A DNA stretch of 32,000 nt from Coprobacillaceae bacterium (GCA_963675915.1 OY780959.1:1050001-1082000); one strand, 5' to 3'. Positions 10,313 through 27,278 are shown, counted from the stretch's first letter. Numbers and translations: made by a program. The notes: a model not told the origin generated them from the sequence alone.

Positions 10313-10364
10313 CAGCTCTTTTAAAAATTACTTACACACTTTTCTTGACAAACCCCAAAAACGA

Positions 10365-10430: not shown

Positions 10431-10456
10431 GTCCAAGAAAACGTCCGCATCCCCGA

Positions 10457-10535
10457 GCGTTACAAGTTCAATATACCACTACAATTATACTACAGGGCTC
10501 AGTTGAATATAAGGTACCTTCTATTTGACGCTTAC
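10457..10535 (-). mobile_element. Solo terminal fragment of an IS66 element related to element B
   Basis: The reverse complement of 10512-10535 is GTAAGCGTCAAATAGAAGGTACCT, matching the 7521 end of element B (GTAAGCGTCAAATAGAAGGCACCT) at 23 of 24 positions. Weaker similarity continues for about 40 more bp (GAGCCC.GT.GTATAAT). No transposase genes are attached, and it abuts the outer IS3 right end. Confidence 0.7.
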
Positions 10536-12035
10536 TCTCGATTTAGTTATATTTCTAATTGTTTCCAAGAATAATTTCATACTTTTTCGGTCAATAATCA
10601 AATTAACAAAAAGCAAAACGGAAAACCATATTATAACGGATTTTACCGCTAATACCACCCAAGACAAATAAGAGACATTGTCAAGTCCAACAAATAAACA
10701 GGCTAATCCTCCTAATGTAAGGATTAGATTGTTTTTTATTATGTCTAAAAACAATGATTGTATATTTCTTCCAATAACTTCTTTGTATAGGTACATACCT
10801 TGCCATAACGTTTTATAAATACTTGATATTAAAGTACCAACTGCAACACCCACCAAACCAAAATACCTAACGGCAATTATTGATATGAAAAGATTCAATA
10901 TTGCAACTTTAATATAATTATCTCTTGACTCTTTGAAGTGTCCAATTGTATTAATAACGATGCTATATGGTGTACAATAAAACTGAAAAAAAGCCGAAAG
11001 TGTTATTGTAAATGCAAACAAAGGCACATCGTAATTGGCATCAGAAACTCCGAAAGTATACACTCTTATAAATGGTCCAATTAAACTCAGAGTGCAACCG
11101 TATACAAAAGTACCCACGGTATGCATTGTATTCTCATACATTCTAAAAGCGTTGGAAAAATTGTCGTCTTCACCCTTGGCCCAAAATTCACCTAATAAAG
11201 GTTGTATTGCGTTGCCAAAAGTAGACAATATTTGGTTTATACCATTTAAAACAAGATTGTATACTGAATATATAGAAACATTCTTAATATTTGAGATTAT
11301 CGTCAAAACAACAACATCTGTATTCCTAAAAACGTAATTGGCAAAATGTTGTGAAATACCGATCCATTTTTGCTTAATAGGCTCTGTGTCATATTTTATT
11401 CTCCAGGATATTCTATAATGCTTTTTTATATACAATGAATAAACGATTGGATTAATCAAGAAGCATACTGCTGTAGCTAGTTTGACCAAATGAATACTAA
11501 CGTCAATTTTAATTAATAAATAACACAACATTGTGTTTAGAAGTGTTGTAGCGGCAGTTGTTATAGAGACGATATAAATCTTTTGATCGGCACAAAGTAG
11601 CTGTGCCCGTACGATTCCAAATAAATATTGTACAATAGAGCCACTACTTAATATAATAATCAACATAACTATATATAGCCTATCAAAATAGTTTTCAACT
11701 ACTAATGGATAGAAAATACATAGAAAAATCGTATATACAACAAGCAAACCCCCGATAATTCTAAAGAATTTGGTTGCAGAGACTAATATTCTACTAATTT
11801 CTTCGTCATCATTATTTGACAGCGGCTTGTATAATGCTGACTGAACCACAACATTGAATCCCATATCAGTCAAGTATATAATCGATAGAAATTGTGTAAT
11901 TGACGAAATCAATCCATTGGTTTCTGAACCATATGTTTCAAGTATTAATTTTGGTAATATAAATGCACAAATTATTGTACACAAACGAGATCCATATTCT
12001 GTGATCAAATTCCAAATTAAGCGCTTTTTTCTCAT
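10521..12035 (-). CDS. wzx: Wzx-type oligosaccharide flippase (MOP superfamily polysaccharide biosynthesis protein); 3' end fused to an IS66 IR
   Basis: About 500 aa, hydrophobic throughout with many predicted TM segments, and terminal in a glycosyltransferase operon. The preferred start is the ATG at 12035, with AAGGAG 6 nt upstream; the track start at 12071 has no RBS. The last codons, V-S-V-K-stop, are encoded by the IS66 terminal repeat. Confidence 0.75.
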   Translation of the reverse strand: MRKKRLIWNLITEYGSRLCTIICAFILPKLILETYGSETNGLISSITQFLSIIYLTDMGFNVVVQSALYKPLSNNDDEEISRILVSATKFFRIIGGLLVVYTIFLCIFYPLVVENYFDRLYIVMLIIILSSGSIVQYLFGIVRAQLLCADQKIYIVSITTAATTLLNTMLCYLLIKIDVSIHLVKLATAVCFLINPIVYSLYIKKHYRISWRIKYDTEPIKQKWIGISQHFANYVFRNTDVVVLTIISNIKNVSIYSVYNLVLNGINQILSTFGNAIQPLLGEFWAKGEDDNFSNAFRMYENTMHTVGTFVYGCTLSLIGPFIRVYTFGVSDANYDVPLFAFTITLSAFFQFYCTPYSIVINTIGHFKESRDNYIKVAILNLFISIIAVRYFGLVGVAVGTLISSIYKTLWQGMYLYKEVIGRNIQSLFLDIIKNNLILTLGGLACLFVGLDNVSYLSWVVLAVKSVIIWFSVLLFVNLIIDRKSMKLFLETIRNITKSRVSVK

Positions 12036-12217
12036 TAAATACTCCTTAGATTCAATTATATTCTTGTTCATAACTTTTTACTAGTTGTCAATAATTCTAA
12101 ATCATCTTAAGTTTCTCAAACCTATAATTTATTCGTTACATTTAAGCATTTTGCCTAATTTTCCTATATGTGAATCAATAAAATTAATTCGAATCGCAAT
12201 TTTTATATTTAATACGA

Positions 12218-13363
12218 TTAGATTTTAATGCTCATTTTATTGCGAGTAATATCATATATGAAGTTACTATAACGCTTTCCGTAAGCATCCCATGTAATAT
12301 TATCTTTTGCATTTTCGATATAGTTATAACCGGGTGTTAATTCTTCATATAGTTCCAAACATCTTTTAATCCCTCTTAGAATTTCTGTTGAGTTTGTTTC
12401 AGGTATTACAACAACCCATTTCCTATCAAAAAGAAGGTCTCTTAGATCAGCGCCACCGGTGTCGTTTGTACAAACAATTGGCATTCCACAAGCCATTGCT
12501 TGTCCCTGAACAACTGCTAATCCCTCTTCTCTAGATACTAAAGCGAAAACTTTTGCCAAGTTATAATAATTAACTAATTCGCATTGATCCACAGGATCAA
12601 CATGAGTAAAATTATTTTTATCCGGAAATTCCAAATCTCCAACCGCACCTACGTGTAATAGGGTGATTTTTGTATCTGAAAGGGCCTCTATCAGGAGGTC
12701 ACACCCCTTTCTATAACACCAAGTTCCTACCATTATTACATCATATTTTTTAGCAACATCAGGTATATACCTGAACATTCGAATATCAACACCATATGGA
12801 TTAATAAATATCTTATCTTCAGGAAAATCGTATTTGAGGAAGCTTTCTTTAACATGTTGTGAAGGAATTGAAATATAGTCAGCAATATCATATCCGATAA
12901 ATTCTCTTTTAACGTCATTTTCCGGCACATAATCTATATTCCCATTTAAATTAATGTCCTCTAAAATTTTTTTCTGTTCTAAAATATGTTTTGAACCACG
13001 TTCGAGTATTATAATGCTTCCATTTCTTTTTGCCTTACGAATGGTATAAACATAATTACCACTTAAAGCAATTATAACATCACACTTTCTCATGAATATA
13101 CCTGTAATTAAATCCTGAGCCAATTTGCGCAACCGTCTAGCCCATTGACTGCGTTTAAATAATATTCTTTCCAAAATGACAAATGGAAATAGCTGAATCA
13201 AAAGACTACTGTTGCAGCCTCGAGGAAGTCCATATTTTTCAGCTCTTTTTGTAGTAATAAATGAATAAAATTTAACGTCGAAACCATTTGCATCTAACTC
13301 TCTCGCTAGATCAAGCAAGTGAAATCTACCCGCCGAGCAGACATTTATCTTTATTTTGTTCAT
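12218..13363 (-). CDS. Glycosyltransferase, GT4/GT-B fold (family 1 domain)
   Basis: 381 aa. The C-terminal motif SREEGLAVVQGQAMACGMPIVCTNDTGGADL is the E-x7-E type signature of retaining GT4 enzymes. GGAG lies 7 nt before the ATG. Confidence 0.8.
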   Translation of the reverse strand: MNKIKINVCSAGRFHLLDLARELDANGFDVKFYSFITTKRAEKYGLPRGCNSSLLIQLFPFVILERILFKRSQWARRLRKLAQDLITGIFMRKCDVIIALSGNYVYTIRKAKRNGSIIILERGSKHILEQKKILEDINLNGNIDYVPENDVKREFIGYDIADYISIPSQHVKESFLKYDFPEDKIFINPYGVDIRMFRYIPDVAKKYDVIMVGTWCYRKGCDLLIEALSDTKITLLHVGAVGDLEFPDKNNFTHVDPVDQCELVNYYNLAKVFALVSREEGLAVVQGQAMACGMPIVCTNDTGGADLRDLLFDRKWVVVIPETNSTEILRGIKRCLELYEELTPGYNYIENAKDNITWDAYGKRYSNFIYDITRNKMSIKI

Positions 13364-13412
13364 AACTGTTCTCCTATAATTTTATAAATTCTCAGATAAA
13401 TAGAAATACTAT

Positions 13413-14984
13413 TTATTCCCTCATGATTTTAATAGATGCTATTGTCTTAGCTATTAACACTACAATTACAAATAATATTGCATCCTCACAAAATCCACGA
13501 AGAATATACTGAATATCCTTAATAATCCCATCAGCATTTTGAAATCGCGCCAATGAAGCATAGGCTTGAAGTAACCCAAAAGATGAGTATATTCGCCCCA
13601 CACCATACGAACGGTATGAAAAAGTATTTAACATTCTCATTACAATATACCATACTAAAAATTGAAGAGGGAAATATATTAGCCCAAATGTAGCAAGTCC
13701 ATCTCCTAGATTGCTAGTGACTCGATAACCCCCAAAATTTGATAAATCACCAATTCCAGAATATACATACAATATATCACCACGTGAATAATCATAATCG
13801 GCTTTATTAAAACTTGGATCCAAAAACTGTACTATGGGCTGAGGATAAGTAGAAACGACTCTATCGGCAAAATCTTTCAACAATAAGCTCTTTTCTTGTT
13901 TAGAAATAAGTCTACTCAAATAAAGTACTTCATCTGTAATTCTAATATTAGAAAAACGATTCAACCATTGGCTTTCCAGATAATTTTCTGTCCAGCCAGA
14001 ACTATATGCGGTCACCTCTTCCGATGAACCATTATAATTATCCCAAACATCTCCAAAATTGTCATCCAATATAGTATCAACAGTGCTATCAATCAATTCT
14101 AAAAAACTAACATCACTTCGGATACTTCTGTTAAGAAGCATAGATTGGGAAACACTTGTAAAAAAAGTAATCGATACATAAAAAATTAAAATGTATTTTA
14201 CGATTATTGACGGGCTTAGCACTCTTTTTATATTGATATTGCAATATACTAGCGATAGAAAGTATAACAAAACAATAATTATGAAGGGTGTTATTAATTC
14301 ATTTCTACTATTTGTTGCCAAATTTAATATCGTAATAAAAACTAAGTAAATCCACACACTTTTATTTTTAAGACTAATTCCCTCATCACGATTATTTTTA
14401 TAAAGACAAGGGAAAAATAATATTACAGGCATGTACATGTAGTAATATAATACGTTTAGACCTTTGAGAATAATATCTACCGAATCAACAAATCCATTTG
14501 ATAAAGCATATATTTTTCCTAGACACCCCATTAGACCAATTATCCAAATAATTCTAGTTGACAATTGCTGATAAAAACCGAGAGACTTTAGGATTTTTTT
14601 TCCAGTTTTATTGCTCTTGGACATCTTGAAAGCAAACTTAAAAGCAATGCATGCAATCACAAACATTATTGTTTCAAGCACGAATGTCATACTTGCATTT
14701 TCCATTCCATAACTGACTGGTCTTAATATTACTAGAGTGGCAGGTACAGGTAAGTAGTGAAATAGAAAAATCGAACACAACATAAAAAAAGAAAACGGTG
14801 CATTGGTAACGTACGACTCCTCTAAAAACGCAGAGAATAAAATTGTACTAACCAACATCATAATACAGCCAAGTAAATTATCAGTTGATGGAAACAAAAT
14901 CATCTCAAAAATAATGGATACTACAGTTATTAAAATCAATGTGATACGACCGATTTTTAGTATTGAATTTTCTTTACTTTCCAA
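13413..14984 (-). CDS. Polytopic membrane protein, candidate Wzy-like repeat-unit polymerase
   Basis: 523 aa with many hydrophobic segments and one large hydrophilic loop at about aa 290-420. Its position between GT genes and wzx supports the call, but I see no recognisable catalytic motif, so this rests on context. The TTG start is uncertain: GGAAGGAG lies 13 nt upstream. Confidence 0.5.
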   Translation of the reverse strand: MESKENSILKIGRITLILITVVSIIFEMILFPSTDNLLGCIMMLVSTILFSAFLEESYVTNAPFSFFMLCSIFLFHYLPVPATLVILRPVSYGMENASMTFVLETIMFVIACIAFKFAFKMSKSNKTGKKILKSLGFYQQLSTRIIWIIGLMGCLGKIYALSNGFVDSVDIILKGLNVLYYYMYMPVILFFPCLYKNNRDEGISLKNKSVWIYLVFITILNLATNSRNELITPFIIIVLLYFLSLVYCNINIKRVLSPSIIVKYILIFYVSITFFTSVSQSMLLNRSIRSDVSFLELIDSTVDTILDDNFGDVWDNYNGSSEEVTAYSSGWTENYLESQWLNRFSNIRITDEVLYLSRLISKQEKSLLLKDFADRVVSTYPQPIVQFLDPSFNKADYDYSRGDILYVYSGIGDLSNFGGYRVTSNLGDGLATFGLIYFPLQFLVWYIVMRMLNTFSYRSYGVGRIYSSFGLLQAYASLARFQNADGIIKDIQYILRGFCEDAILFVIVVLIAKTIASIKIMRE

Positions 14985-15076
14985 CGTATATACTTAACTC
15001 CTTCCATTTATATCAAAATATGAATATTGCAATAATTAACGATTATATTTAGTATTACAAATAAATCTTTCTTCAC

Positions 15077-16153
15077 TTAATTTCCATTACAATTAACGAC
15101 ATCAATTAACTTATTTGTATTTCCTAATATATAATCCAAAATTCGTCTCATTGTTTCCAAATTTGAATATCCTGAATTCAAACAACGTTGTCTACCATTA
15201 TTTGCGATTATATTTCTCTCTTCATTATGCTCTAAATAATATTTACACTTGGTCAGTAATTCTTCATTTGAATCAAAATATTCAGCTTCTTCGCCTTCTT
15301 CAAATAACATCAAATGTTCCCTAGTTCGTTCTGCCAACATAAATCCGCCACAAGCTGGAATCTCCATAGTTCGAGAAGTCTGTTGATCGTAATTAATTTT
15401 TCTCAAAAAACACAAAGAGATTTTGAAACAACGGAATGATTTTGCATAGTCCTCATTATGAAGTCCCGAAGTTTCAATAATAAGATTTTCATTATCCCCT
15501 CTGCAAACATTCCATCCTTCATCCCCGAAAACACGCACTTTCACACCATTTCTTGTCAGATATAATATACTTTCCATTCGTTCTTTTTCCCACGAACCTA
15601 CAAATCCAACATCTGCATCCAATCGAGACATATCTACTTCAGAAATTTCTCTTGGATAATGAAAAGAATTTTCATAGCTCATACTTACAAATTGAATGTC
15701 TTTCGCACCTAATTTTCTCATATCCTCTAAAATATAGGATTTCATTGTAATATGATAATCATATAAAGGGATACATTCAAGATAATTTTGACTTTGATTA
15801 TGCCTAAGTGCCATATTATCTGGAGAATAACTCACTATTTTTGTATTCGGTTGTATTATTTTAACGCTCTTCAAAGTTTCAGGATTAATTGTAACTCCTT
15901 TGTCAATCCAAACAACATCAAATTCATTTTCCCGTAACTTTGCTAATAATTTTTTGTTAGATTTATCTACATCTGGCAAACGAATTGGTATTCCTAATAA
16001 AAATAAGTGATACGCCACCTTATACCAAAAGCCAATTCGAGTTTCTTGTGTGTTTATAACATCAACACTTTCAGCAATTTTTTCTAATGCTACGTTTCTT
16101 AATCTGCACGTATTACTTATTCCCGACATACGACCTACCGATAATATTCTCAT
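15077..16153 (-). CDS. CgeB-like glycosyltransferase (Glyco_trans_1_2 type C-terminal domain)
   Basis: 358 aa. RTMEIPACGGFMLAERTREHLMLFEEGEEAEYFDSNEELLTKCKYYLEHNEERNIIANNGRQR matches the CgeB / DUF3880-associated GT domain pattern. A strong RBS, GGGAGG, lies 8 nt before the ATG. Confidence 0.7.
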   Translation of the reverse strand: MRILSVGRMSGISNTCRLRNVALEKIAESVDVINTQETRIGFWYKVAYHLFLLGIPIRLPDVDKSNKKLLAKLRENEFDVVWIDKGVTINPETLKSVKIIQPNTKIVSYSPDNMALRHNQSQNYLECIPLYDYHITMKSYILEDMRKLGAKDIQFVSMSYENSFHYPREISEVDMSRLDADVGFVGSWEKERMESILYLTRNGVKVRVFGDEGWNVCRGDNENLIIETSGLHNEDYAKSFRCFKISLCFLRKINYDQQTSRTMEIPACGGFMLAERTREHLMLFEEGEEAEYFDSNEELLTKCKYYLEHNEERNIIANNGRQRCLNSGYSNLETMRRILDYILGNTNKLIDVVNCNGN

Positions 16154-16614
16154 TTTCTATACCTCCCTAAATATAAATAAAAATAATGTATTATATTAAT
16201 TAATGAACCCAGTATCTACAATTTTTGCAAATAACGATTATCAAAATTCACAAATAACTTAAACATGACCTAAAAAACGATTAAATCATCGAAGACGTAA
16301 ACATATCGAATTTTTAAGAAAAAATAACATTCAATCAGAAATAGATAATACTTAATTAGTCTTAGAAACTGATATTAATCCCATTTAATCAGCAAAGTTT
16401 TAAATTATCAACCGCTTTTTACTAACAAAATCTTAGCAATAAAAAGATTAAACTCCATTTAAATACAATGAAAATCGGATAATTATGAAAACGATTATTT
16501 ACAAATAATGAAAAAGTAAAAATTTGGTCTTTGATATTATATGAAAATATCCAATTTGAACCAGATTATAATTTTTGCTAACAATAATTATAACGTTTCT
16601 ATTCTATATGATTT

Positions 16615-17604
16615 TTAACAAAAACTTCGATATATCTCATAATACTCTTTAGTAATCTTATCAACAGAAAAATTCTTCACATTTTCATTTCCCAATTTTT
16701 TGTATTTAGGATAATTATTTATAGCATCCATAATCCCCATACGAATAGAGTCGATATCATATGGATTAACCAATGGACAGCTAATGCCAGCAATTTCTTT
16801 CATAGGAGAAATATTGCTAGATACAACAACTTTACCTGATGCCTGACCCTCAATAATAGGCATTCCAAAGCCTTCATATAGTGATGCAAAGACAATAATA
16901 TCGGAATTTCTATATTCTTCAATAATCTCATTTTTTGAAAGATCTTCCCTTTGGTAATATTGAATGTTCTGTTCATCTAGTATTATTCTTTGGTCTTCTT
17001 TTAGGGGACCAACAATTCGTAACTTGCATTGAATCCCATGCAGTGCTACAGCAACTCTCTCTAAATTTTTGTTTTCTCTAGTACCTATTTGTAATACAGT
17101 AGGATTTTCCTTAAAAAATATAGTTTTTTCATCAGGTGCAAAATCACTATCTACGGGATTCATTACTACATATGTTTGGTCCTCTTTAAAACTAACTAAC
17201 TCTTCCGCTTCTTTTTTACTCTTTAGAGAAATAAAGGTAACTTTTCTTGAACTTTTCAACGAGGCAACCCATAAGAAGTATTTTTTCAAATACAATATAA
17301 GAGATTTCTTTTTGTTGGTATAAAAACCTAAATCGTGAACCGTAACCACTGTCTTAAAAGGACGTAGAAATGGTAACAAATAGTGCTCTGTTCCAGTAAT
17401 ATGAACGATAGTTTCCGGATTTTTTATCATATATTTTCGAATAAGAAGAATATTGTATACCAAGTTTCTCAATGAATATCTTTCATTTTCAAACATAATC
17501 GAATCAACATCGCAAAATTCTTTCATTTTTGATTCAATTGGTCGAAAAACAGCATCTATTGAATAGCCCATTTTAATATTTCTGTAGATATATAATACTT
17601 TCAT
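16615..17604 (-). CDS. Glycosyltransferase, GT4/GT-B fold
   Basis: 329 aa. The SLYEGFGMPIIEGQASGKVVVSSNISPMKEIAG motif is present. GGGGGA lies 6 nt before the ATG. Confidence 0.8.
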   Translation of the reverse strand: MKVLYIYRNIKMGYSIDAVFRPIESKMKEFCDVDSIMFENERYSLRNLVYNILLIRKYMIKNPETIVHITGTEHYLLPFLRPFKTVVTVHDLGFYTNKKKSLILYLKKYFLWVASLKSSRKVTFISLKSKKEAEELVSFKEDQTYVVMNPVDSDFAPDEKTIFFKENPTVLQIGTRENKNLERVAVALHGIQCKLRIVGPLKEDQRIILDEQNIQYYQREDLSKNEIIEEYRNSDIIVFASLYEGFGMPIIEGQASGKVVVSSNISPMKEIAGISCPLVNPYDIDSIRMGIMDAINNYPKYKKLGNENVKNFSVDKITKEYYEIYRSFC

Positions 17605-17642
17605 AATTTATCCCCCGTTTTAGTTCTATGTCAATATTTAGG

Positions 17643-18258
17643 ACAATTTTAATGTAAGAAGTTAAATTGTCTTGCCTATGTTAATATAATTTTTTCGAAT
17701 TGATTTAGCGATAAATTTTCATATTGTGAATGTATTCGTACTGTGTTTTAGAAAACATCAATGTACTCAAAGATTAACCTATCAGCATAGTGATTATCTT
17801 GTATTCGGAATCGATTAATCCATTCCCGCTTAATTATAGAACGAAAGATTCGATACATCCATTATCCCAGAGGTTACCTTTATCGGAGTAGTTGGTAACT
17901 ATATCTTCCGTCATATCCTTGAATAGTTTTGAAGTAGTTTGCACACCGCAATCTACGTGAGTTACAACCAGGTCTGCTGTGTTACGTCTTTGTTTTTCTT
18001 CTTCCAAGCACTTAAGCACAGCTTCGGAACATAACGTGTCACTCAATGTCCAAGCAATTATTTTTGTGGAGTATAGATCCATTATGCTGGTCATGTAGAC
18101 GAAGCCATCATCCTGAGTCCAAATATAAGTGATATCAGTACACCAGGCCGCATTAGGCTTTTCCGGATTGAAATCCTGCTTCAGGATATTTTATATTTCA
18201 TTGAAAAGTAACAATTTTTGCCTGATTTACTTACCCCTAGTTTGTTTAGCACACTACA
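17643..18258 (-). mobile_element. Internally deleted IS3-family relic inside the polysaccharide operon
   Basis: Putative ends are TGTAGTGTGCTAAACAAACTAGGGG (reverse complement at 18258) and ...CTTCTTACA (reverse complement of 17643). They match only about 12 of 24 positions and I saw no target duplication, so the boundaries are approximate. Confidence 0.45.
17666..18190 (-). pseudogene. IS3-family OrfB pseudogene (N-terminally truncated, one frameshift, one internal stop)
   Basis: The minus strand reads NPEKPNAAWCTDITYIWTQDDGFVYMTSIMDLYSTKIIAW...THVDCGVQTTS...DKGNLWDNGCIESF. After a frame change near 17845 it reads RSIIKREWINRFRIQDNHYADRLIFEYIDVF*NTVRIHSQYENLSLNQFEK, where the expected FYN is F-stop-N. 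Confidence 0.8.
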
Positions 18259-18360
18259 CTGGAAACAAAAATTTTAGCTATCTTGATAAAATCATATATT
18301 GCTTTGGGTAGTGAATAGTTTTTGTTTATATGACAACATGATTTCACAAAATAGAACACC

Positions 18361-19176
18361 TTAATTTTTTCTAGAAAATAATTCATATAAACCAAATATT
18401 GTAATAAATGTTGATGCAATATTTACTACAGTACTTTTCAAAATCCTAAGAAATAATATTTTTCTCCGAAAATTTAAGTACTTGTAATCTCTAGCAAGAA
18501 ATAACTCTACTAATTTAGCATCCTCCATATCTTTTTTTGATCCTTTATTTATCTTCCATTTTATAAATTCATCTAACGCTAGTAATTTACACCCCTCATA
18601 AGGTATATAATATTTTGGATTATTTAGTAAATCGTATGATTCTACAGAATGATATTTTACATAGTCATAATTATTTTCTATTTCGTTTATTTTTTCAACG
18701 TACCCATATTCAGTTTCTAGACTTAAAAAATCTAAATCTCCAAACTTTCTAATACCATACACCCCCAAGACAGCAGTTGAATCTAATAAAAAATCAGAAG
18801 ATTTTCCACCGCCATCGTTAACGATACTTACAAAATTTTTTATTCTTGTGGTAGCTGTAGGATATTTATATAAATCACCCTCATTTAGTAAGTGTATTCC
18901 GTTTTCATTTAAAAGTGTACACGCAAGATCATCATCTTTAATTTCAAAAGAATTTTTTACTGATGTTTCAATAGGCACAACAACAATATAGATTTCACCC
19001 GAAATCCAATAAGGAACATTTTCGTTTTGTAAAACGAACTCAATATTTGGACGAAATTTTCCGCTAACATTTGCTTCTTGCATAATTATAATTTCGATAG
19101 ATTGTGGTACAAACTTGGTAATAATACATTTGTTTAAACGACACAAGTTCAAGCTCTCTTCATAAGTAAAATTCAT
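18361..19176 (-). CDS. Hypothetical protein: unknown N-terminal domain, nucleotidyltransferase/LicD-like segment and C-terminal hydrophobic tail; paralogue of the C-terminal third of the upstream gene
   Basis: 271 aa. The LGVYGIRKFGDLDFL segment (G-x-x-G ... D-x-D) lies around 18730-18759. NPKYYIPYEGCKLLALDEFIKWKINKGSKKDMEDAKL aligns with NPSKHGYFYDMKFLAIEEYIKIKKIKGTEKDINDISL of the 19182..20648 product. The tail is ILKSTVVNIASTFITIFGLYELF. The start lies 5 nt after the upstream stop. Confidence 0.6.
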   Translation of the reverse strand: MNFTYEESLNLCRLNKCIITKFVPQSIEIIIMQEANVSGKFRPNIEFVLQNENVPYWISGEIYIVVVPIETSVKNSFEIKDDDLACTLLNENGIHLLNEGDLYKYPTATTRIKNFVSIVNDGGGKSSDFLLDSTAVLGVYGIRKFGDLDFLSLETEYGYVEKINEIENNYDYVKYHSVESYDLLNNPKYYIPYEGCKLLALDEFIKWKINKGSKKDMEDAKLVELFLARDYKYLNFRRKILFLRILKSTVVNIASTFITIFGLYELFSRKN

Positions 19177-19181
19177 GATAA

Positions 19182-20648
19182 TTAAGTTCTTCCCTTATTA
19201 ATATTTCTGTATATTTTTCGCATCAAATTATATATACACATTTTTTTGAAAATGTAACTCCCAATCAAAAATAATTTCCTTTCTACCAACTTAAACAATC
19301 TTCGAACTTTTTGATCAAAACTCAACTTTCGACTATATTCGAACTTACTAATTGCTTCTCTTAATAAACTGATATCATTTATATCTTTTTCAGTTCCTTT
19401 AATTTTTTTGATTTTAATATATTCCTCAATTGCAAGAAATTTCATATCGTAAAAATAGCCATGTTTAGAGGGATTAGATATGCATTCATTAACTAAGCGC
19501 ACTTCCTCTGGTTGATCAAATTTACTCAAAGAACTGAATTTTATCAAATCACAATCTCTGATACCGTAAATCGACAACAATGAATCAGCAACGATTATTT
19601 CATTATCATTGTGGGCATAACTATCATTTCCTAGCAATGATTGCATTATTTTCGAAAATTCAGGTGTACTTTCAAGACTTGTGTTATTTAATGCACAAAG
19701 AGAATTCTCATTTAATAGCAGTCTTATCATTTGAAGAGACTCAACAGAGTTATCTGATATATGAATAGAATGATTACCAATATTAAATAGGGAACGAACC
19801 TCTTTTTTCAATTTCAAAACTTCAAAAATATTATTACTCTCAAATACTACTATGTGCAACGGTACTCCAGGAGCATAACACGGATCAACCTTTGACATTA
19901 CGCTTTTAAAATTATTTTCAAAATTCCCAACCCAATCGTGTGCTATATAAATTTGCGACATATAGTTTCTATACCCTAAGTATGAAATATCTATATCAAA
20001 CTCAGCGATAATTGAGCCATATTTATTAAAAACTTCACCTAAATGATTTCTGGTTTCTTTATTGCTAGCAACAGGCCAAATGTTAGCAACATAGACATTA
20101 TCTTTAATTTTACAATATTCCTCAAGCAAGTGATTTAAGTAAACTGAGTCCAATAATTCATTTTTAAAATATTCATATCCAAAATTAAAACTTATGTCAG
20201 AAAAACGTATGACTTTAATTGGGAGATTTAGATAAATGGCACATGCTGCCCTATGCGCCCCATCAAGTATTTCAAAATCGGCTCCTACAGGTATAATAGA
20301 TCGTGTATAATCAAATCCATTATGTTTAATATCATTAAAAAGTTTTTTAAACTCACTTCTATAGCTTGAAATATTATTTTTTTTTTGATTTCCCGGTTCT
20401 GAAAACGTACCATGTGTAAACGCTTTTATATGTTCATTATATAAATCTTCATAATAACTACTCTCGTATCCATCATCTATTGACTTTAAATATAAATATT
20501 TTGCAACTATGTCGATTCGTTTAGCTGTAATCAATTTCCTTGGGTCAATATTTAATATTTCGTATTGTGTATTTTCGTTGATGTTGTTACCGGTGCAAAA
20601 ATGTTCTCCCAACAACATTTTGATACTATTTAAACTTATTTCGCTCAT
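19182..20648 (-). CDS. Hypothetical multidomain protein: ParB/Srx-like N-terminal domain, NDK-like middle domain, NTase/LicD-like C-terminal domain and an amphipathic/hydrophobic tail
   Basis: 488 aa. ILNIDPRKL...FNDIKHNGFDYTRSIIPVGADFEILDGAHRAACAIYLNLPIKV carries DGAHR at 20250-20264. PGVPLHIVVFESNN...VRSLFNIGNHSIHISDNSVESL (19737-19775) resembles the NDK motif N..HGSDS.ESA. YGIRDCDLIKF lies at 19548-19568. The ATG overlaps the stop of the upstream GT gene (ATGA). Confidence 0.6.
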   Translation of the reverse strand: MSEISLNSIKMLLGEHFCTGNNINENTQYEILNIDPRKLITAKRIDIVAKYLYLKSIDDGYESSYYEDLYNEHIKAFTHGTFSEPGNQKKNNISSYRSEFKKLFNDIKHNGFDYTRSIIPVGADFEILDGAHRAACAIYLNLPIKVIRFSDISFNFGYEYFKNELLDSVYLNHLLEEYCKIKDNVYVANIWPVASNKETRNHLGEVFNKYGSIIAEFDIDISYLGYRNYMSQIYIAHDWVGNFENNFKSVMSKVDPCYAPGVPLHIVVFESNNIFEVLKLKKEVRSLFNIGNHSIHISDNSVESLQMIRLLLNENSLCALNNTSLESTPEFSKIMQSLLGNDSYAHNDNEIIVADSLLSIYGIRDCDLIKFSSLSKFDQPEEVRLVNECISNPSKHGYFYDMKFLAIEEYIKIKKIKGTEKDINDISLLREAISKFEYSRKLSFDQKVRRLFKLVERKLFLIGSYIFKKMCIYNLMRKIYRNINKGRT

Positions 20649-21811
20649 AGCTGATTATCCCTCAATATAGTATTAAACATATTCCTGTATCCATCTGCAT
20701 AATCGTATTTATTGCTTTTCATAAATGCATAATCCACAGCTTTATCAGATAATGACTGAAAAACCTTAGAATTCATTTTTGCATAGAGTTCGACTAATTT
20801 TACGAATTCATTGAAATTATCCAAAGATAGTGAATTTCCAACTTCATATAGTTCTAAATCATTCCAAGGAGTTTGATCGCTTAATACGCAAACGCAACCT
20901 GCGGATAAAGCTTCTTGAATAACGTGACCATAATTTTCACCTAAAGTCGGAAACAAAAAGACATCTTCTCCTCTTAACACGTCTATTACTTCTTCAGATT
21001 CAACTGAGCCCTTATAATTACATAAAACATTTTTCGGGAGTTTAGACAATTCCAATTCACATTTTCCCCAATATTCTTTATCCTCAATAGGTCCGTATAC
21101 TGTAAATTCAATATTAATTTCAGAAGAAATATTTTGCAAAACCTTAATAGCATACAATAAATTTTTCTTTTGTGATATTCTAGAAATAAACACTATTTTT
21201 AAATTTTCTGAAACTCTCTTTTTAACATATTTCTTATGTACTTTTCTAGGTATATCTTGGGCAATAAAAAAATCAGCATTAGATTTCACTTTTCCTTTGA
21301 CTTCTGCTATTTCCAATTCAGAAGTTGTAGACCAATGAATCCCTGAAAAAATCCCTAATATATTGCATAACATTACAAAACTTTCTTTCTTATAATACTT
21401 AATTTTAAAAGCCAAAGGAGAAAAAAGACCCATTGAAGCAATTACTATCGGTTTTTTTATACACCCGATTTTACTCATTAGTAGAATCTTTATGGCATAT
21501 GAATCAAAACATCCACAAACATATATAATATCTGAATTTTGTACAAGTTTTTTCAAACAAGAAAAGGTATATTTTCCTTCTGGAACATAATAAACCATTG
21601 CGGCGCCAAGTCTATTCCACTCTGAAACTTGAATATTGGAATATTGTTTGCTATCACCTAAATCACGATCATAACATGATATATAAAAATTATACTCCTC
21701 ACCAAGAACATCTACCAAATTAGCGATTGAACGTCCTGGTCCACCACCTTTATAACCTGGTAAATATCTTCCCAAAATAATTAGAATATTATTTTTTTTT
21801 TCATCTTTCAT
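20645..21811 (-). CDS. Glycosyltransferase, GT4/GT-B fold
   Basis: 388 aa. N-terminal ILIILGRYLPGYKGGGPGRS and C-terminal PTLGENYGHVIQEALSAGCVCVLSDQTPW. ATGA overlap with the upstream GT2 gene. Confidence 0.8.
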   Translation of the reverse strand: MKDEKKNNILIILGRYLPGYKGGGPGRSIANLVDVLGEEYNFYISCYDRDLGDSKQYSNIQVSEWNRLGAAMVYYVPEGKYTFSCLKKLVQNSDIIYVCGCFDSYAIKILLMSKIGCIKKPIVIASMGLFSPLAFKIKYYKKESFVMLCNILGIFSGIHWSTTSELEIAEVKGKVKSNADFFIAQDIPRKVHKKYVKKRVSENLKIVFISRISQKKNLLYAIKVLQNISSEINIEFTVYGPIEDKEYWGKCELELSKLPKNVLCNYKGSVESEEVIDVLRGEDVFLFPTLGENYGHVIQEALSAGCVCVLSDQTPWNDLELYEVGNSLSLDNFNEFVKLVELYAKMNSKVFQSLSDKAVDYAFMKSNKYDYADGYRNMFNTILRDNQL

Positions 21812-22707
21812 GTCTTCAGGTCTCCTTGCGGTCGCATCAAAATTTCTTTTTTTTCACACTCATATAATTTAGCGTCAACTAAAAAACGATACCAATAAGC
21901 TTGCAAAAAATTAAATATTTTCCCTTCGGGTCCATCAAGAAAACCAAACTTTAGATAATACCTATAGATAAAATATAGATGTGCGCGCCAAAACATGGGT
22001 AACTTGTAATAAAATCCACTTTTAGCTAAACGTTTTAACTTTGCTTGACCAAATAAATCATTACCATTATGAGAATTCTTATGAGATAAGAGTGACATCT
22101 GATAGTCTAATACTTCACGATTACTATACCAATTATGCTTTGATGTCCACCAATCGAGGTTTTTATTATTATTGTCTATGAAATCACTTTTGAACGCTGT
22201 GATCGATCCATGCTTCAAGATCATATGCTCATCCATCATTTTTTTCTCACAGAATGCACTACCAGTTCGAAAAATACGTAATAGTAGTTCCGGATAACGG
22301 CCTCCATGTTTTATCCATCGGCCCATAAAGTAAACTCGTCTTCTTAAAACGATACCATTAGTATCCGCAGTCACATTTGGGAGTTCTAACTCAATCTCAA
22401 GAGCTAATTCCTCCATTAATTCCTCATCAGAATCCATTCTCATAGACCATTCCGTATCAATATTTGTATTTGTTAGTCCCCAATTTAGTTGATCCGCATA
22501 GTTTTTCCATTTATGTTGATAAAAATCCAAACTAGATCCAACAGCCATGAGTTCTTTATTAAGTTGAGTACATAAAATTTCAGTACTATCTGTACTGTAT
22601 GAATCTATTATGACAAATCTCTTTGCTATCCCATTGAATGACTGGATACATTTCCTTAGGTTTTTCTCCTCATTTTTAGTCAAAATTACAACAGTTAGAT
22701 CAACCAT
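21808..22707 (-). CDS. Glycosyltransferase family 2 (GT-A fold)
   Basis: VVILTKNEEKNLRKCIQSFNGIAKRFVIIDSYSTDSTEI is a classic GT2 N-terminus. The preferred start is the ATG at 22707, with GGAGGG 7 nt upstream and immediately after the acetyltransferase stop. The track start at 22755 would overlap the upstream gene by 47 nt. Confidence 0.8.
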   Translation of the reverse strand: MVDLTVVILTKNEEKNLRKCIQSFNGIAKRFVIIDSYSTDSTEILCTQLNKELMAVGSSLDFYQHKWKNYADQLNWGLTNTNIDTEWSMRMDSDEELMEELALEIELELPNVTADTNGIVLRRRVYFMGRWIKHGGRYPELLLRIFRTGSAFCEKKMMDEHMILKHGSITAFKSDFIDNNNKNLDWWTSKHNWYSNREVLDYQMSLLSHKNSHNGNDLFGQAKLKRLAKSGFYYKLPMFWRAHLYFIYRYYLKFGFLDGPEGKIFNFLQAYWYRFLVDAKLYECEKKEILMRPQGDLKT

Positions 22708-22708
22708 G

Positions 22709-23290
22709 TTATTTCCCTCCGACTTTCCTAATAACTTTTGCAGGATTTCCAACAATCACACAATTTGAATCAAATTTACCACTTACAACTGCTCCAGCAC
22801 CAACTACGCACCCATCACCTAAAACAGTACCTTTCAAAATTATACTATTACATCCTAGAAAACAGTTCTTACCTATATATATCGGCTTTGCTAATATCAA
22901 ATGGTCTAAATCATCAGAATAATTATTCAAGAATTTAAGTCGATCTTCTGCCAATATAGGATGAAAATCATTGTCTAAAATCTTACAATTACCTCCGATA
23001 GCAGTGTTTTCTCCAATGTAAATCCCTTTTCTAGCATATAATGTTGCCCCAGACATTCCAACGTTATCTCCTATTATAATTTCCGAATCAGAGGTTCTAG
23101 TAACAATAATAGTTCTACTATACAATCCAACTAAATTGCTTAAAAAAGAACTCTTTATGATTACGTTTGCTCCTAATTTTATTCTAGCGCCCTTACTATT
23201 AAATATTACCGGTACACCATGTATATGTAAATTCCTACCGTATCTCACTTTAATTATCTTCAAAAACAATTTGAACCAACCACAATTCAT
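22709..23290 (-). CDS. Hexapeptide-repeat (left-handed beta-helix) O-acetyltransferase
   Basis: IGDNVGMSGATLYARKGIYIGENTAIGGNCKILDNDFH...IGKNCFLGCNSIILKGTVLGDGCVVGAGAVVSGKF..VIVGNPAKVI. The preferred start is the ATG at 23290 (MNCGWFKL), with AGGAG 8 nt upstream. Confidence 0.85.
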   Translation of the reverse strand: MNCGWFKLFLKIIKVRYGRNLHIHGVPVIFNSKGARIKLGANVIIKSSFLSNLVGLYSRTIIVTRTSDSEIIIGDNVGMSGATLYARKGIYIGENTAIGGNCKILDNDFHPILAEDRLKFLNNYSDDLDHLILAKPIYIGKNCFLGCNSIILKGTVLGDGCVVGAGAVVSGKFDSNCVIVGNPAKVIRKVGGK

Positions 23291-23354
23291 TATAGCTCTC
23301 CTGTCATTTATAATTGCATACCACAAAATTCAAAATTCTATTTATTGATAACAG

Positions 23355-24632
23355 TTAGATGCTAATTATAGCATCTTTATATTTATTAACTGATATTTCT
23401 TTTGTCAAATGTGAAATAAGATATTCATAACTCCTATTACCCATCATTTTTACTTCCCCATTACCCGCATTGTCAATAAACCACTTTATATTTTTTTCTA
23501 CTTGATCATAATCACCTGGATTACAGCATAAACCACCATTTGTGTATTCAATCAGGCTACGAATCTCGGTTCCTTCTTCTAAAACTCCCAGTACGGGCTT
23601 TCCAACTGCCGCTATCCCATAATATTTGCTTGGGCATGATACACCTTTTATCCCAAATGTATTAACACACCAGTGTACATCTGCAGAGTTCAAACTATAG
23701 ATAAGTTCCGACTTATCTTGGTATGGTATGAAAATAGCATTGAACATATCATTCTTTTCTTTGAAATCTTTTAAATCTTCCAACACACTACCAGCCCCGA
23801 CAAAAGCAAAGACTACATCTAGACCATTTTTTGTCTTAGTCCCCGTTTTAAATTTATTCATAACCTTAATTAGATTTTCCAAGTCATAATATAAACCAAT
23901 ATTGCCAGAATACATAATGACGAATTTGCCATCCAAATTGTATCTCCTTTTGAACGCAACCACCCTTTCATGGGAATCGGATATCGGAAATATCTCATTT
24001 TCATCAATCCAATTGTTAATTAGAGCTGACTTAGGAGTATTCTCATTATTAAAGCGTTTTTCATGTGTTTCTATCAAATCACGCCCCACAGTAATTACCA
24101 AGTCACTTTTTCTACAGCTGAACTTATCTAAAATCATTAGTATCTTTATAATTAATTTGCTTCTACTATAATTAACTGCAAGAATTTGTTCTGGATTAAA
24201 ATCTTGAATATTATAAATATACTTTGCTTTTTTTAACATCTTTCCCCAAACGCCTAGTAATCCTCCTAAAATAGGAGGTTGAGAAATAGAAAAAACATAA
24301 TCGAAATTTCCGACTTTAATAGTTGCTATAATTGCCCCTAAAAAATATGATATTATATTTTTAATACGAGATATCTTGTTATCTTTACTGAATTCTGGTA
24401 CTCTAATTCTCAATACCTTCACCCCGTTGATATTCTCATTATAAAATTTACTATTTTTATAACTATCTTCAATAATGCCTAGATAACTCGGTACCACACA
24501 AATTACAGTAATGTCAAAATAATCTAACAATCCCTCCGCCAATTCGCTTAGAATTTGACCTGTTGATGCAGTATCCGGTAAATAATAATGAGCATATATT
24601 AGTAGTTTTGGCTTTTTTTCCACATTTTCCAT
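23355..24632 (-). CDS. Glycosyltransferase, GT4 (WbuB/WcaI-like); first gene of the operon as seen here
   Basis: 425 aa. KLLIYAHYYLPDTASTGQILSELAEGL is the N-terminus typical of WbuB/WcaI-like GT4 enzymes. C-terminal PSKYYGIAAVGKPVLGVLEEGTEI. AAGAGG lies 7 nt before the ATG. Confidence 0.75.
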   Translation of the reverse strand: MENVEKKPKLLIYAHYYLPDTASTGQILSELAEGLLDYFDITVICVVPSYLGIIEDSYKNSKFYNENINGVKVLRIRVPEFSKDNKISRIKNIISYFLGAIIATIKVGNFDYVFSISQPPILGGLLGVWGKMLKKAKYIYNIQDFNPEQILAVNYSRSKLIIKILMILDKFSCRKSDLVITVGRDLIETHEKRFNNENTPKSALINNWIDENEIFPISDSHERVVAFKRRYNLDGKFVIMYSGNIGLYYDLENLIKVMNKFKTGTKTKNGLDVVFAFVGAGSVLEDLKDFKEKNDMFNAIFIPYQDKSELIYSLNSADVHWCVNTFGIKGVSCPSKYYGIAAVGKPVLGVLEEGTEIRSLIEYTNGGLCCNPGDYDQVEKNIKWFIDNAGNGEVKMMGNRSYEYLISHLTKEISVNKYKDAIISI

Positions 24633-24725
24633 CCATCGACCTCTTAAACTTGTTTATATTAATACATGTAACTCGTTATAACTTATTATTGAACTTTAAC
24701 GTTTGAGTTCAATATTTATTCTAAT

Positions 24726-24756
24726 ATTATAAAATCAAAAAAACTTCCTTTTTCAA
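24726..24756 (-). promoter_or_regulatory. Candidate sigma-A promoter for the polysaccharide operon
   Basis: The minus strand reads TTGAAA (24756-24751), a 19-nt spacer, then TATAAT (24731-24726), about 95 nt upstream of the ATG at 24632. The spacer is longer than optimal and the region is AT-rich, so this could arise by chance. Confidence 0.3.
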
Positions 24757-25184
24757 ATTAAAAACAGGATTGATCAATACCACATTATCTAGTGAGATAT
24801 TAAAAAACTTTTACGAAATCACACTATGAAAATTGTTGATATATTAATCAATCCCATTGAGATATTTATTTTATTATTCTTCGTTATAAGATAGTCCATG
24901 TTAATATCCCCCAATTCCCCATAATTACGTTTAAAGCTCATTTTAAACCAGTTTTGTGTTTATCCCCTAATGATAACCACACCATTAACTTTAGATACAT
25001 TTGTTCCACAAAACCAAGACTAACGAGATAATATCACTAGATTTTCGATAAGTCAAGAACACATTTGGATATTTGTGAAACTATTTGCACAAGTGAGATA
25101 TTACTCAAATAAAACCCTAATAATTAGTTTCCAATCTCTTTTTCTTTTTATATCCAATAAAGACTAGACAACCGATGAATCCCC

Positions 25185-25778
25185 CTATGTATTGTACACT
25201 AGATCAGCCAACTGCAAAGTTCCTAGTTTGAAGATCAGTTGGTTAAGCTCAATAAACACTGAAGTTCCAAAGCTCAGCATTAAACCAAGCAAGAAAATCT
25301 GAAACCTGGTTTTCCCTTCAACTATATTCCTGAATGTTAGAAACAATAGATAAGTGTATGGAATAAACAAGATGATGTTTTCCAAGAAGTTGCAGTTAAG
25401 TCCATCTTCATCAAAATAGAACCACCATTCGCTCATGACTGTATCCAAGCCACCCCATATTCTTTCCCTATCTAAGAGTGTCCTCATAGCTAGCACATAT
25501 ATATAAAAAAAGAATACTAGATAATATTGGTATTGCCGCTCCGTTTTTAGCTTGTTGAAAAGCTTAATGATTCCGATTTTCTTTTCCTGATGTCGAAACA
25601 ACAGCATCAGTGAAACCATCAATAATGCAAAGACCAAGGACTGGATTCCATAGCTGTAAAAACAGACGAATATATCATTTGCTACAACTTTGATAATCTC
25701 TCCTACATTTATCATTTTGCCATCAACATAAGATTTAGCAATTATCAAACAATCAGTTAGATAACTCCTAAATATCAA
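25185..25778 (-). CDS. VanZ-like family membrane protein
   Basis: About 175-197 aa with 4-5 hydrophobic segments and the FLENIILFIPYTYLL motif (N..LF.P) typical of VanZ-like proteins. The track start is a TTG, and an internal ATG (MINVGEII, 25715) is equally possible. Confidence 0.6.
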   Translation of the reverse strand: MIFRSYLTDCLIIAKSYVDGKMINVGEIIKVVANDIFVCFYSYGIQSLVFALLMVSLMLLFRHQEKKIGIIKLFNKLKTERQYQYYLVFFFYIYVLAMRTLLDRERIWGGLDTVMSEWWFYFDEDGLNCNFLENIILFIPYTYLLFLTFRNIVEGKTRFQIFLLGLMLSFGTSVFIELNQLIFKLGTLQLADLVYNT

Positions 25779-26265
25779 TAATTCGCAACCTATTACACTA
25801 CATTAGTGATAAATCGACTTTATAATACTCCTGTAAAGTATATGTATACTGTAAAGACAATTGAGTCAAAAGTCAATCCTAAATTTATTAAGAAACACTA
25901 AATTTGATAATAAAATTTCAACTCAATAAATATTTATTACATTGTCGATTTTTTAAAACTCACCGAATATGTTCGCTGTAAATAATACTACATATTAAAT
26001 AAAGTCTCAACAATTCATTGAATTCTCACCTAAATTTTACACTCTGGTCAAATAATGTATTCTAGAGCCAGGAATCAAATACTTGAAATAAGCCAAGTTT
26101 CCCTGTTCAAAGCAGGCAATCAAACAAGATGCCTGTATACCATAATCCCAAATTCAAATATTCATCTTCGAGTCTCAACATTCTCCTGATAAACACAGAT
26201 TCAGCTCAAAATCAACGTCTAAGCATCATTACATTAATGAGTTAACTGATTACCTATTAATCTCA

Positions 26266-26372: not shown

Positions 26373-26419
26373 GTATGCGTCAAATAGAGCGGTGGTAGGT
26401 TGTCGAGGTCATTGATGGT

Positions 26420-26782
26420 ATGATTATCACATCGAATTGGAGGTGTGATGATTTTAATTATTCTGATGATCAGTGGCAGGTGATATTTACTGAGGCTGCC
26501 AATAGTGATCTGACCATTAAAAAATGGTGTTTGGCTAACGATGTTTCGTACAATGCTTTTTGCTACCACAAGTATTCTAAGCCATATTTGAATCGCTCAA
26601 GAGATGAAGTTAAGGATTCTGGATTTACTACAGCTCTTGTCAGGCTGGATATTGTTGATTGCAACAGTAAAGTTGTTTCCAAGGGGTTCGATGTCAATAT
26701 TGGCAAGGCTACTATTTCGGTTGACGACTCGACAGACTTGGAAACTCTGGCTAAACTGATAGGTATGATCAATGAAGCTTAG
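26420..26782 (+). CDS. tnpA: IS66-family TnpA (copy 2)
   Basis: 120 aa, with one substitution relative to copy 1 (L12F). Confidence 0.8.
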   Translation: MIITSNWRCDDFNYSDDQWQVIFTEAANSDLTIKKWCLANDVSYNAFCYHKYSKPYLNRSRDEVKDSGFTTALVRLDIVDCNSKVVSKGFDVNIGKATISVDDSTDLETLAKLIGMINEA

Positions 26783-27131
26783 GTTTGAAGACTTCGACAA
26801 TATCTATTTGGTTCCTGGGGCAACTGATCTTAGGAAAAGCTACGCCGGGTTAAGCGCGATTGTATCCCACAGCCTGTATCTTGACCCCACCGCCAATAAC
26901 CTGTACATCTTTTGCAACAGATCCAAGAAAAGCATCAAGATGCTGGAGTTCGACAAGAACGGATTTGTCATCCACTCCAAGAAGCTGCTTAATAAAGATA
27001 AGTTCTTCTGGCCCAAGGGTGATGAAGATATCACTTCAATGGTTGTTGACATCCGTCAGTTGAGTTGGTTGCTTGATGGATTGGCAATTGAACAGAAAAG
27101 GGCATTCAAGGACATTTCAGTAATGATATAG
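26772..27131 (+). CDS. tnpB: IS66-family TnpB (copy 2)
   Basis: 119 aa. The protein is identical to copy 1 although the DNA differs at six synonymous sites. Confidence 0.9.
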   Translation: MKLRFEDFDNIYLVPGATDLRKSYAGLSAIVSHSLYLDPTANNLYIFCNRSKKSIKMLEFDKNGFVIHSKKLLNKDKFFWPKGDEDITSMVVDIRQLSWLLDGLAIEQKRAFKDISVMI

Positions 27132-27242
27132 CCCCTACGCATAAGATTAATTCACATTTATTTGTGGGTTTATCTTTTGCCTTTTGAAGTTATTCACATC
27201 TTTTATAAATTGCCGTGAAATCAAGACTTTCAGGGCTTTTTA

Positions 27243-27251
27243 TGCTACAAT
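27243..27251 (+). promoter_or_regulatory. Candidate extended -10 (TGCTACAAT) upstream of tnpC, copy 2
   Basis: TGCTACAAT lies in the 147-bp tnpB-tnpC spacer, followed by AGAGGTGGA and the GTG at 27279. Confidence 0.3.
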
Positions 27252-27278
27252 GCCACTAGTGGAAAGAGGTGGATTCAA

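Follow-up and report, generated by a model that had tools for sequence, protein, structure and literature searches.

In the described O-antigen terminators, a methyltransferase and a kinase make a methyl-phosphate cap that is read by Wzt, and the kinases of two such systems, WbdD and ORF6-O7 of Klebsiella pneumoniae, are unrelated to each other (PMC3482155, PMC11231755). Among proteins with the ParB fold, sulfiredoxin (Srx), SerK and SbnI are ATP-dependent phosphotransfer enzymes, and the arginine of the Box II GxxR P motif is required for nucleoside triphosphate (NTP) binding (PMC12704722). A 2025 survey of fusions of the ParB-CTPase fold, built on PF02195, mentions no nucleoside-diphosphate kinase (NDK), nucleotidyltransferase (NTase) or polysaccharide partners; its lone occurrence of "glycosyl" is in a reference-list title. 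Here we describe two adjacent minus-strand genes of a Coprobacillaceae bacterium (GCA_963675915.1, OY780959.1:1050001-1082000); the window is the whole stretch of 32,000 nucleotides analysed, and positions are counted from its first letter. The main gene (19182-20648) encodes 488 residues, comprising a ParB/Srx-like domain, an NDK-like domain, a degenerate NTase-like domain and a basic tail. The partner gene (18361-19176) encodes 271 residues and is a partial paralogue with an intact NTase-like domain. The 488-residue protein is a member of a large, widespread and unannotated enzyme family of glycan biosynthesis with a domain combination for which we found no description. The best overall explanation is a glycan-modifying phosphotransfer enzyme, the NTase site of which would, in the clade of the window, be supplied by the partner; we give this a probability of about 0.5.

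An exhaustive hidden Markov model (HMM) search returned 4124 representatives of 50%-identity clusters at E ≤ 1e-3 and 1750 at E ≤ 1e-30, and a word-indexed search recovered 31 family proteins. Conservation is counted over 177 family members, in the numbering of the 488-residue protein; fusions are counted over 178 proteins, and neighbouring genes over 25 genome loci (FkbM) or 33 loci (ABC ATPases). Neither window protein matched Pfam or NCBIfam, and Pfam scans of 28 family members matched only fused glycosyltransferase (GT) domains of family GT2. The family HMM found only spurious matches among PDB sequences (E about 0.26), PADLOC gave no match and PHROGs gave insignificant matches only. Public sources offer no name for family members, and literature keyword searches did not find this domain combination described. 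An earlier reading made from the sequence alone, without database searches (the sequence-only reading), had recognised no named family in the pair, and Pfam, NCBIfam, PADLOC, PDB sequences and the literature supply none. A defence or phage origin was considered and rejected on the PADLOC and PHROGs results.

In the predicted models, fold support is best for the NDK-like domain, followed by the ParB/Srx-like domain and then the NTase-like domain. The AlphaFold (AF2) model of the main protein has a predicted local distance difference test (pLDDT) score of 88.6 and a predicted template modelling score (pTM) of 0.86. When it was compared to the PDB with Foldseek, the top 50 matches were all NDKs (E from 3e-3, probability 1.00), with template modelling (TM) scores against the target of 0.55-0.67, 12-20% identity and about 137 aligned columns. 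The NDK-fold domain spans residues 183-325 (19674-20102), and in the model the order of secondary structure elements in residues 185-322 is that of NDK. His296 (codon at 19761-19763, within GNHSIHISD) is at the position of the catalytic histidine and is conserved in 175 of the 177 members. Other near-invariant residues of this domain are Pro192 (173/177), Tyr234 (176/176), Trp239 (176/177), Lys281 (177/177), Arg285 (176/177), Asp299 (174/176) and Asn315 (175/176). The best local hhalign alignment places Arg285, His296 and Asp299 on Arg105, His118 and Asp121 of NME2, in the expected register. The alignment of the middle domain to PDB-verified NME2 is not significant (E = 0.15), and PF00334 was not matched by Pfam scans of the two proteins and 28 members. 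Both the NDK fold and the catalytic position of His296 had been proposed in the sequence-only reading, and both assignments stand.

The ParB/Srx-like domain comprises residues 1-182 of the main protein (20103-20648). The viral structure library BFVD was searched with the 488-residue model to escape saturation by NDK matches; 15 of the best 50 matches are named as ParB or sulfiredoxin proteins (E 0.02-0.25), and the search also gave family members from giant viruses (E 3e-13 to 7e-6) and two NDKs. Arg44 (175/175), Asp46 (173/175) and Glu84 (175/175) are conserved, as is the motif D129-G-A-H-R133, a GxxR-type phosphate-binding motif (PMC12704722) that maps to 20250-20264, where it had been placed from the start. 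Position 129 is Asp or Asn, and Gly130, His132 and Arg133 are found in 175, 176 and 175 of 176 members, respectively. Gly130-x-His132-Arg133 fits the Box II GxxR P motif, including its essential arginine. In the 28 members scanned there is no match to PF02195, and an hhalign comparison of the N-terminal domain with Srx and Spo0J sequences unverified against the PDB aligned the motif only and did no better than negative controls; for Srx, the alignment is the 13-residue motif alone (E = 0.045). The proposed ParB/Srx identity is therefore weakly but consistently supported by the BFVD fold matches and the invariant GxHR, and goes without a PF02195 or profile-profile match.

The NTase-like domain of the main protein (residues 345-440, 19329-19616) has lost its catalytic D-x-D. 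In the family, Gly362 (168/175), Arg364 (163/175) and aspartates at positions 368 (158/169) and 370 (159/168) are conserved, and the hG[GS] ... D-x-D motif is present in about 94% of members; the main protein has Leu368 and Lys370 instead. The D-x-D that the sequence-only reading saw in the main protein is D365-C-D367; this is offset by three residues from the catalytic pair, and even the closest relatives do not conserve it. The three closest homologues (P0002-P0004, 44-51% identity) likewise lack the D-x-D. In all four main genes of this clade, the gene directly downstream (in L001, L002 and L030 as in the window) encodes a protein of 266-276 residues, 34-53% identical to the window partner. 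In the four partners the stretch LDSTAxxGxxGxRxxGDLDFL is invariant; in the window partner, the motif residues Gly141, Arg143, Asp147 and Asp149 are all present, and the intact catalytic D-x-D lies in G146-D-L-D-F150 (18727-18741). Word-indexed searches for partner homologues found only the window protein and P0179, and, judged from these sequences, partners occur in a single small clade only.

The main gene and its partner are translationally coupled. As the sequence-only reading had noted, the start codon of the main gene and the stop codon of the GT4 gene before it overlap in ATGA (ctATGAgc), and the TAA of the main gene is followed, after 5 nucleotides, by the ATG of the partner; a Shine-Dalgarno-like AAGGGAAG stretch is located upstream of the partner ATG. 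Both open reading frames (ORFs) are present with the coordinates and lengths first ascribed to them, and their paralogy is far beyond chance: the BLASTP E-value is 1e-9, the family profile aligns to the 271-residue protein with an hhalign probability of 99 (E = 4e-18), and a profile of the four partner sequences aligns to the family with a probability of 99.8 (E = 2e-30). The N-terminal 125 residues of the partner had been called unrelated; homology begins at about residues 84-87 (LLNENGIHLLN), rather than at residue 126, and in the hhalign alignments it possibly extends weakly over a vestigial NDK-like remnant N-terminal to that point.

The predicted model of the partner has pLDDT values of about 85-90 for residues 87-271 and below 50 for residues 1-86. 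Residues 87-235 (18472-18918) form a linker helix and a canonical NTase-like domain, which has 30-38% identity to more than 150 C-terminal domains of the family; that of its own neighbour ranks only 156th, at 24.6%. Pol-beta nucleotidyltransferases make up 18 of the 21 PDB fold matches listed for the partner, none of them significant (best E = 0.49, target TM-scores (TMt) at most 0.40); they include ANT(2'')-Ia, poly(A) polymerases, MNT, JHP933 and 2rff. ANT(2'')-Ia nucleotidylates a sugar hydroxyl. The NTase fold proposed for this segment is thus supported qualitatively, with a best E-value of only 0.49. The more specific kinship with LicD that the sequence-only reading suggested is not borne out, as there is no LicD match in Pfam scans that include the 28 members and there are no CDP-donor genes in the locus.

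Residues 1-86 of the partner (18919-19176), a clade-specific region of low model confidence, are conserved among the four partners. In a greedy profile alignment, the whole partner runs along family residues 169-480, with low confidence in its N-terminal part; SFEIKD is opposite SIHISD, so the position of the NDK histidine is not a histidine in the partner. Judged from this alignment, residues 1-86 may be what is left of an NDK-like domain after decay. The pair is most simply explained by partial tandem duplication of the NDK-like domain, NTase-like domain and tail, followed by reciprocal decay. Members from giant viruses show a fused equivalent, in which a ParB-like domain is followed by two modules, each with an NDK-like and an NTase-like domain; in P0023, P0026 and P0146, only the second NTase motif is intact, the first being degenerate. 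The family member P0027 (745 residues, L028 10001-12238) has doubled NDK-like and NTase-like modules and is encoded on a giant-virus contig, beside a major capsid protein of nucleocytoplasmic large DNA viruses (NCLDV) and VLTF3. Other members in BFVD come from Mimivirus LCMiAC01, Catovirus and Yasminevirus.

All three motifs are kept in 155 of the 177 members. In P0024 (L029 10001-11380), both the histidine at the NDK position (NKSFSIS) and the D-x-D are lost while DGAHR is kept, in an otherwise intact Wzx/Wzy locus; this double loss suggests that P0024 may be an inactivated enzyme or pseudo-enzyme. In two loci from metagenome-assembled genomes (L012 9851-11455 and L025 9518-11481), the family gene is read as two ORFs, with the break in the NDK-like domain; a frameshift, a pseudogene or an error of assembly could account for this.

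No transmembrane segment is predicted in the main protein or the partner. The maximum Kyte-Doolittle hydropathy over 19 residues is 1.27 for the main protein and 1.59 for the partner, the latter reached in a segment that its three orthologues lack. The last 50 residues of the proteins have net charges of +6 to +16 (+13 in the main protein) and high hydrophobic moments. In the AlphaFold model, the tail of the main protein (residues 441-488, 19185-19328) consists of helices 444-469 and 473-485. The tails are basic amphipathic helices, which fits peripheral membrane association; of the basic membrane tails first proposed, the basic character is retained and a membrane-spanning segment is not. The family enzymes are probably soluble, membrane-peripheral proteins.

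Members in glycan loci come from many phyla, ranging from Firmicutes to Cyanobacteria and bacteria of the candidate phyla radiation (CPR), and members also occur in giant-virus genomes. The association with glycan loci holds in the window and in L001-L004, L009-L012, L019, L021, L023 and L029-L032. Members are in Wzx/Wzy-type loci in Bacillota and Bacteroidota, one is in a Pel-like locus, and those of diderm, CPR and cyanobacterial genomes are in loci with ABC exporters and methyltransferases. Fusions join the module to GT2, GT4/GT1, GT10, polysaccharide deacetylase, DUF1919 and TPR domains, and some of them are TPR-containing megaproteins with several glycosyltransferases. FkbM-type methyltransferases are the commonest fusion partners (25 of 178 proteins, all 25 among the 56 that have at least 600 residues). 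Of 25 genome loci, 9 have FkbM within 10 kb, and ABC ATPases are present in 10 of 33 loci. In L010, a gene for a Wzt C-terminal carbohydrate-binding module is directly upstream of a module-FkbM fusion.

Four loci of Pseudomonadota and Nitrospirales (L021, L023, L024 and L025) encode a fused ABC exporter of 576-597 residues, with transmembrane and nucleotide-binding domains (TMD-NBD), upstream of the family gene and, in L021, L023 and L024, immediately adjacent to it; their family proteins have N-terminal extensions of about 170-220 residues without a Pfam match. A C-terminal fusion to DUF1919, a function-unknown domain seen in exopolysaccharide (EPS) clusters, recurs in L006 (976-3138) and P0107, and in L006 it coincides with loss of the D-x-D.

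In the window, a Pfam scan of the ORFs places the pair within a minus-strand series of glycan genes. Upstream are a GT1 gene (23355-24632) and a conserved block (20645-23326) of a hexapeptide acyltransferase (22709-23326), a GT2 (21808-22755) and a GT4 (20645-21811) gene, the last directly upstream of the main gene. The order of this block is the same in L030, and in L001 and L002 it is GT2-GT1. More GT4/GT1-like genes lie beyond the partner. Two polytopic membrane ORFs of about 520 residues (10521-12071 and 13413-14984), each with 7-8 hydrophobic segments and no Pfam match, are probably a divergent Wzx/Wzy-type flippase and polymerase. Within the window we see no priming transferase or chain-length regulator; the cluster ORFs include no nucleotide-sugar, cytidylyltransferase or CDP-alcohol synthesis genes, and the locus contains no methyltransferase and no ABC exporter.

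The glycan cluster (10000-26000) is an island of 27-33% GC between flanks of 39-45% GC, with a strongly negative GC skew, and this contrast suggests horizontal acquisition. Two inverted copies of an IS66 insertion sequence (IS), 2735 nucleotides long and 99% identical, flank about 20 kb that include the whole cluster: both arms (left, 3328-6062; right, 26373-29107) were identified by the inverted repeat, the left one also by Pfam matches to IS66 TnpB and TnpC, and the copies carry TnpA-like, TnpB and 586-residue TnpC proteins. Their paired, inverted arrangement recalls a composite transposon. A minus-strand fragment of an IS3-family integrase (Pfam rve, 17834-18094) is directly downstream of the partner, between it and the next GT4 gene, and breaks the operon. 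The cluster as a whole looks horizontally acquired; the pair are nonetheless operon members. Of the earlier claim that they are operon members and not cargo of a mobile element, the former is upheld and the latter is not, given the flanking IS66 copies and the IS3 remnant. Other IS remnants are dense in the window: between the two IS66 copies lie another element of the IS66 family (7618-9581), a transposase of the IS256/Mutator type that is truncated (6568-7524) and an IS3-type integrase piece (6128-6508), and a further IS3-type piece is at 1768-2595. At 29093-31990, a 965-residue surface protein with tandem Big_9/cadherin-like domains is encoded; a direct repeat of 179 nucleotides in its gene (31077-31255 and 31623-31801, 75% identity) reflects the domain repeats.

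How might such an enzyme work? We infer NTP use, a phospho-histidine intermediate, a glycan acceptor and physical cooperation of the two proteins. A common NTP would be the simplest donor, as the window cluster contains no genes for nucleotide-sugar or CDP-alcohol synthesis. By analogy with the ParB-fold phosphotransferases, the near-invariant histidine and the lack of donor genes suggest that a phosphoryl group is relayed via His296 at the expense of an NTP. The ParB/Srx-type domain would bind this NTP, drawn from the general pool, through its GxxR P motif, and the phosphoryl group would be relayed via phospho-His296 to a sugar hydroxyl of a lipid-linked glycan, in a kinase-like phosphotransfer. 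The NTase-fold domain may act as a sugar/acceptor-binding or nucleotide-binding module, or as a module for a second transfer, and the basic amphipathic tail would keep the enzyme at the membrane beside the glycosyltransferases. In the window clade, where the D-x-D is lost in cis, the partner, which has GDLDF and lacks the NDK histidine, would supply the site in trans. That the family comprises glycan-modifying, NTP-dependent transferases is, in our judgement, probable; that they specifically phosphorylate via a phospho-histidine is a tentative proposal. The phosphate-linked or nucleotide-activated substituent suggested in the sequence-only reading seems plausible. Somewhat more doubtful is the wider idea that the family is a third, non-homologous class of glycan kinase or phosphotransferase, with NTP binding by the ParB/Srx-like domain, a phospho-histidine relay, methyl-phosphate caps made with FkbM enzymes and read by Wzt, and a separable NTase module.

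Several observations weigh against the phosphotransfer proposal. The E-values of the fold matches are marginal (3e-3 for NDK, at least 0.02 for ParB/Srx and at least 0.49 for NTase), and all sequence-profile tests against known families failed. The position equivalent to NDK Lys12 is Trp, Phe or Tyr in the family, and the Kpn loop is essentially absent, the model leaving no room for it between strands 264-270 and 295-297; nucleotide binding may therefore differ from that of NDK. FkbM enzymes may methylate sugars directly rather than methylating a phosphate, and the glycan context of the giant-virus members is not obvious. Cooperation of the main protein with its partner is a proposal from the sequences, and the four partner-bearing loci, belonging to one clade, represent one evolutionary event. 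GxHR and His296 are kept without the D-x-D in 18 of the 177 members, and in five loci (L005, L006, L029, L031 and L032) the D-x-D is lost with no trans partner in the locus sequence examined, so the NTase-like site is not universally required. Supply of the NTase in trans as a general rule is ruled out by these five loci. The protein P0011 lacks the NTase-like domain altogether; together with the recurrent loss of the D-x-D and the partnerless loci, this makes the ParB-like and NDK-like domains the obligatory core.

If the NTase-like domain were itself catalytic, the enzyme might move a phospho-alcohol from a CDP donor, or a nucleoside monophosphate, in the manner of LicD-like or nucleotidyl transferases, with the ParB-like domain binding CTP and the NDK-like domain regenerating or channelling NTP. 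The hG[GS] ... D-x-D in most members, the intact copy retained in trans by the window clade, the ANT(2'')-Ia-like fold matches and the classical role of the ParB fold as a CTP binder agree with this. We consider it unlikely, however: there is no LicD Pfam match, neither the window nor related loci contain CDP-alcohol or cytidylyltransferase genes, and, of the three motifs, the D-x-D shows the lowest conservation, being repeatedly lost without replacement, up to absence of the whole domain in P0011. The same domains could instead serve nucleotide metabolism for sugar activation, as a dedicated NDP-kinase or NTase making NTPs or nucleoside-diphosphate sugars for the neighbouring glycosyltransferases. 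An NDK fold with a histidine at the catalytic position, an NTase fold and a place among glycosyltransferases would suit such a role, but the missing Lys12 equivalent and Kpn loop, the lack of similarity to sugar-1-phosphate nucleotidyltransferases and the sufficiency of a housekeeping NDK make it quite improbable; the fusions to methyltransferases and deacetylases and the membrane tail point to the polymer as the target.

A role without catalysis, as an NTP-dependent switch or scaffold that organises a glycosyltransferase complex or chain length at the membrane, like the ParB-CTPase clamps, is only slightly less improbable. ParB-CTPase folds are typically switches, terminator proteins are organisers in ABC-dependent pathways, and the basic amphipathic tail and the TPR multi-GT megaproteins would be at home in a scaffold; yet a near-invariant histidine at the catalytic position with NDK-like neighbours, and a D-x-D, are hard to account for in this way, and trans-complementation of the D-x-D implies selection on catalysis. 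Least credible of all is that the pair is decaying or selfish cargo of an IS-flanked island, a pseudogenising remnant or a mobile-element or defence module with no glycan role. The inverted IS66 copies, the IS3 fragment adjoining the partner, the dead NTase site of the main protein and the frequency of ParB and NTase folds in conflict systems are what could be said for it, but neither ORF is broken, four loci share the pair and its GT2-GT4 neighbours at 34-53% identity, PADLOC and PHROGs offer no significant match, and family members lie among glycan enzymes and are fused to them. A glycan-modifying phosphotransfer enzyme remains our preferred explanation.

The family fills thousands of sequence clusters in capsule, EPS and O-antigen loci, yet has no Pfam or NCBIfam model, solved structure or literature. 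Should phosphate-based decorations be its product, many glycan structures with unassigned modifications would find an explanation. If the proposal is true, an NDK-type phospho-histidine mechanism would be added to glycan chemistry, annotation of chain-terminator and modification steps would gain a new marker and, because the 2025 survey missed the family, the known repertoire of the ParB-CTPase fold would be extended. The split pair is a clean natural case of reciprocal active-site loss after partial gene duplication.

Compared with NDK (PF00334), the central domain has the same fold and strand order, with the histidine on strand 4 at the catalytic position and conserved equivalents of Tyr52, Arg105, Asn115 and Asp121. 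It differs in having no sequence-level match, an aromatic residue for Lys12 and no Kpn loop; it also sits between two other domains, whereas NDK is a free oligomeric enzyme. With sulfiredoxin, SerK and SbnI, the main protein shares a GxxR phosphate-binding motif in a small alpha/beta domain, for which we propose a like use, outside DNA segregation, as an NTP-binding and phosphotransfer module. Unlike them, it is not detected by PF02195, has no helix-turn-helix or dimerisation domain, and shows no identified counterpart of Box I or Box III; the ParB-fold fusions surveyed in 2025 include none to NDK-like and NTase-like domains. The Pol-beta NTases, such as ANT(2'')-Ia, and the LicD-type enzymes resemble the third domain in their hG[GS]-x(n)-D-x-D motif, carried on a beta-alpha-beta core with a helical subdomain after it, and ANT(2'')-Ia also modifies a sugar hydroxyl. 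The fold matches are weak, though, there is no Pfam match to LicD (PF04991) or NTP_transf, and the motif is dead in the 488-residue protein.

The closest functional parallel to be drawn is with WbdD, of E. coli O9a and K. pneumoniae O3, and ORF6-O7. Their kinases are protein-kinase-like or APH-like with a catalytic aspartate, while the family has ParB-like, NDK-like and NTase-like domains with a putative catalytic histidine, and neither the two proteins nor the 28 members scanned match the Pfam Pkinase or APH families. The window locus also differs in being of the Wzx/Wzy type, without a methyltransferase or ABC exporter, and kinase activity here is a proposal. WbdD and ORF6-O7 are cytoplasmic, are anchored by an amphipathic helix, use ATP, act on a lipid-linked glycan and are paired with a methyltransferase; similarly, many family members are fused or adjacent to FkbM or other S-adenosylmethionine (SAM) methyltransferases and to ABC exporters, and the one in L010 lies beside Wzt_C.

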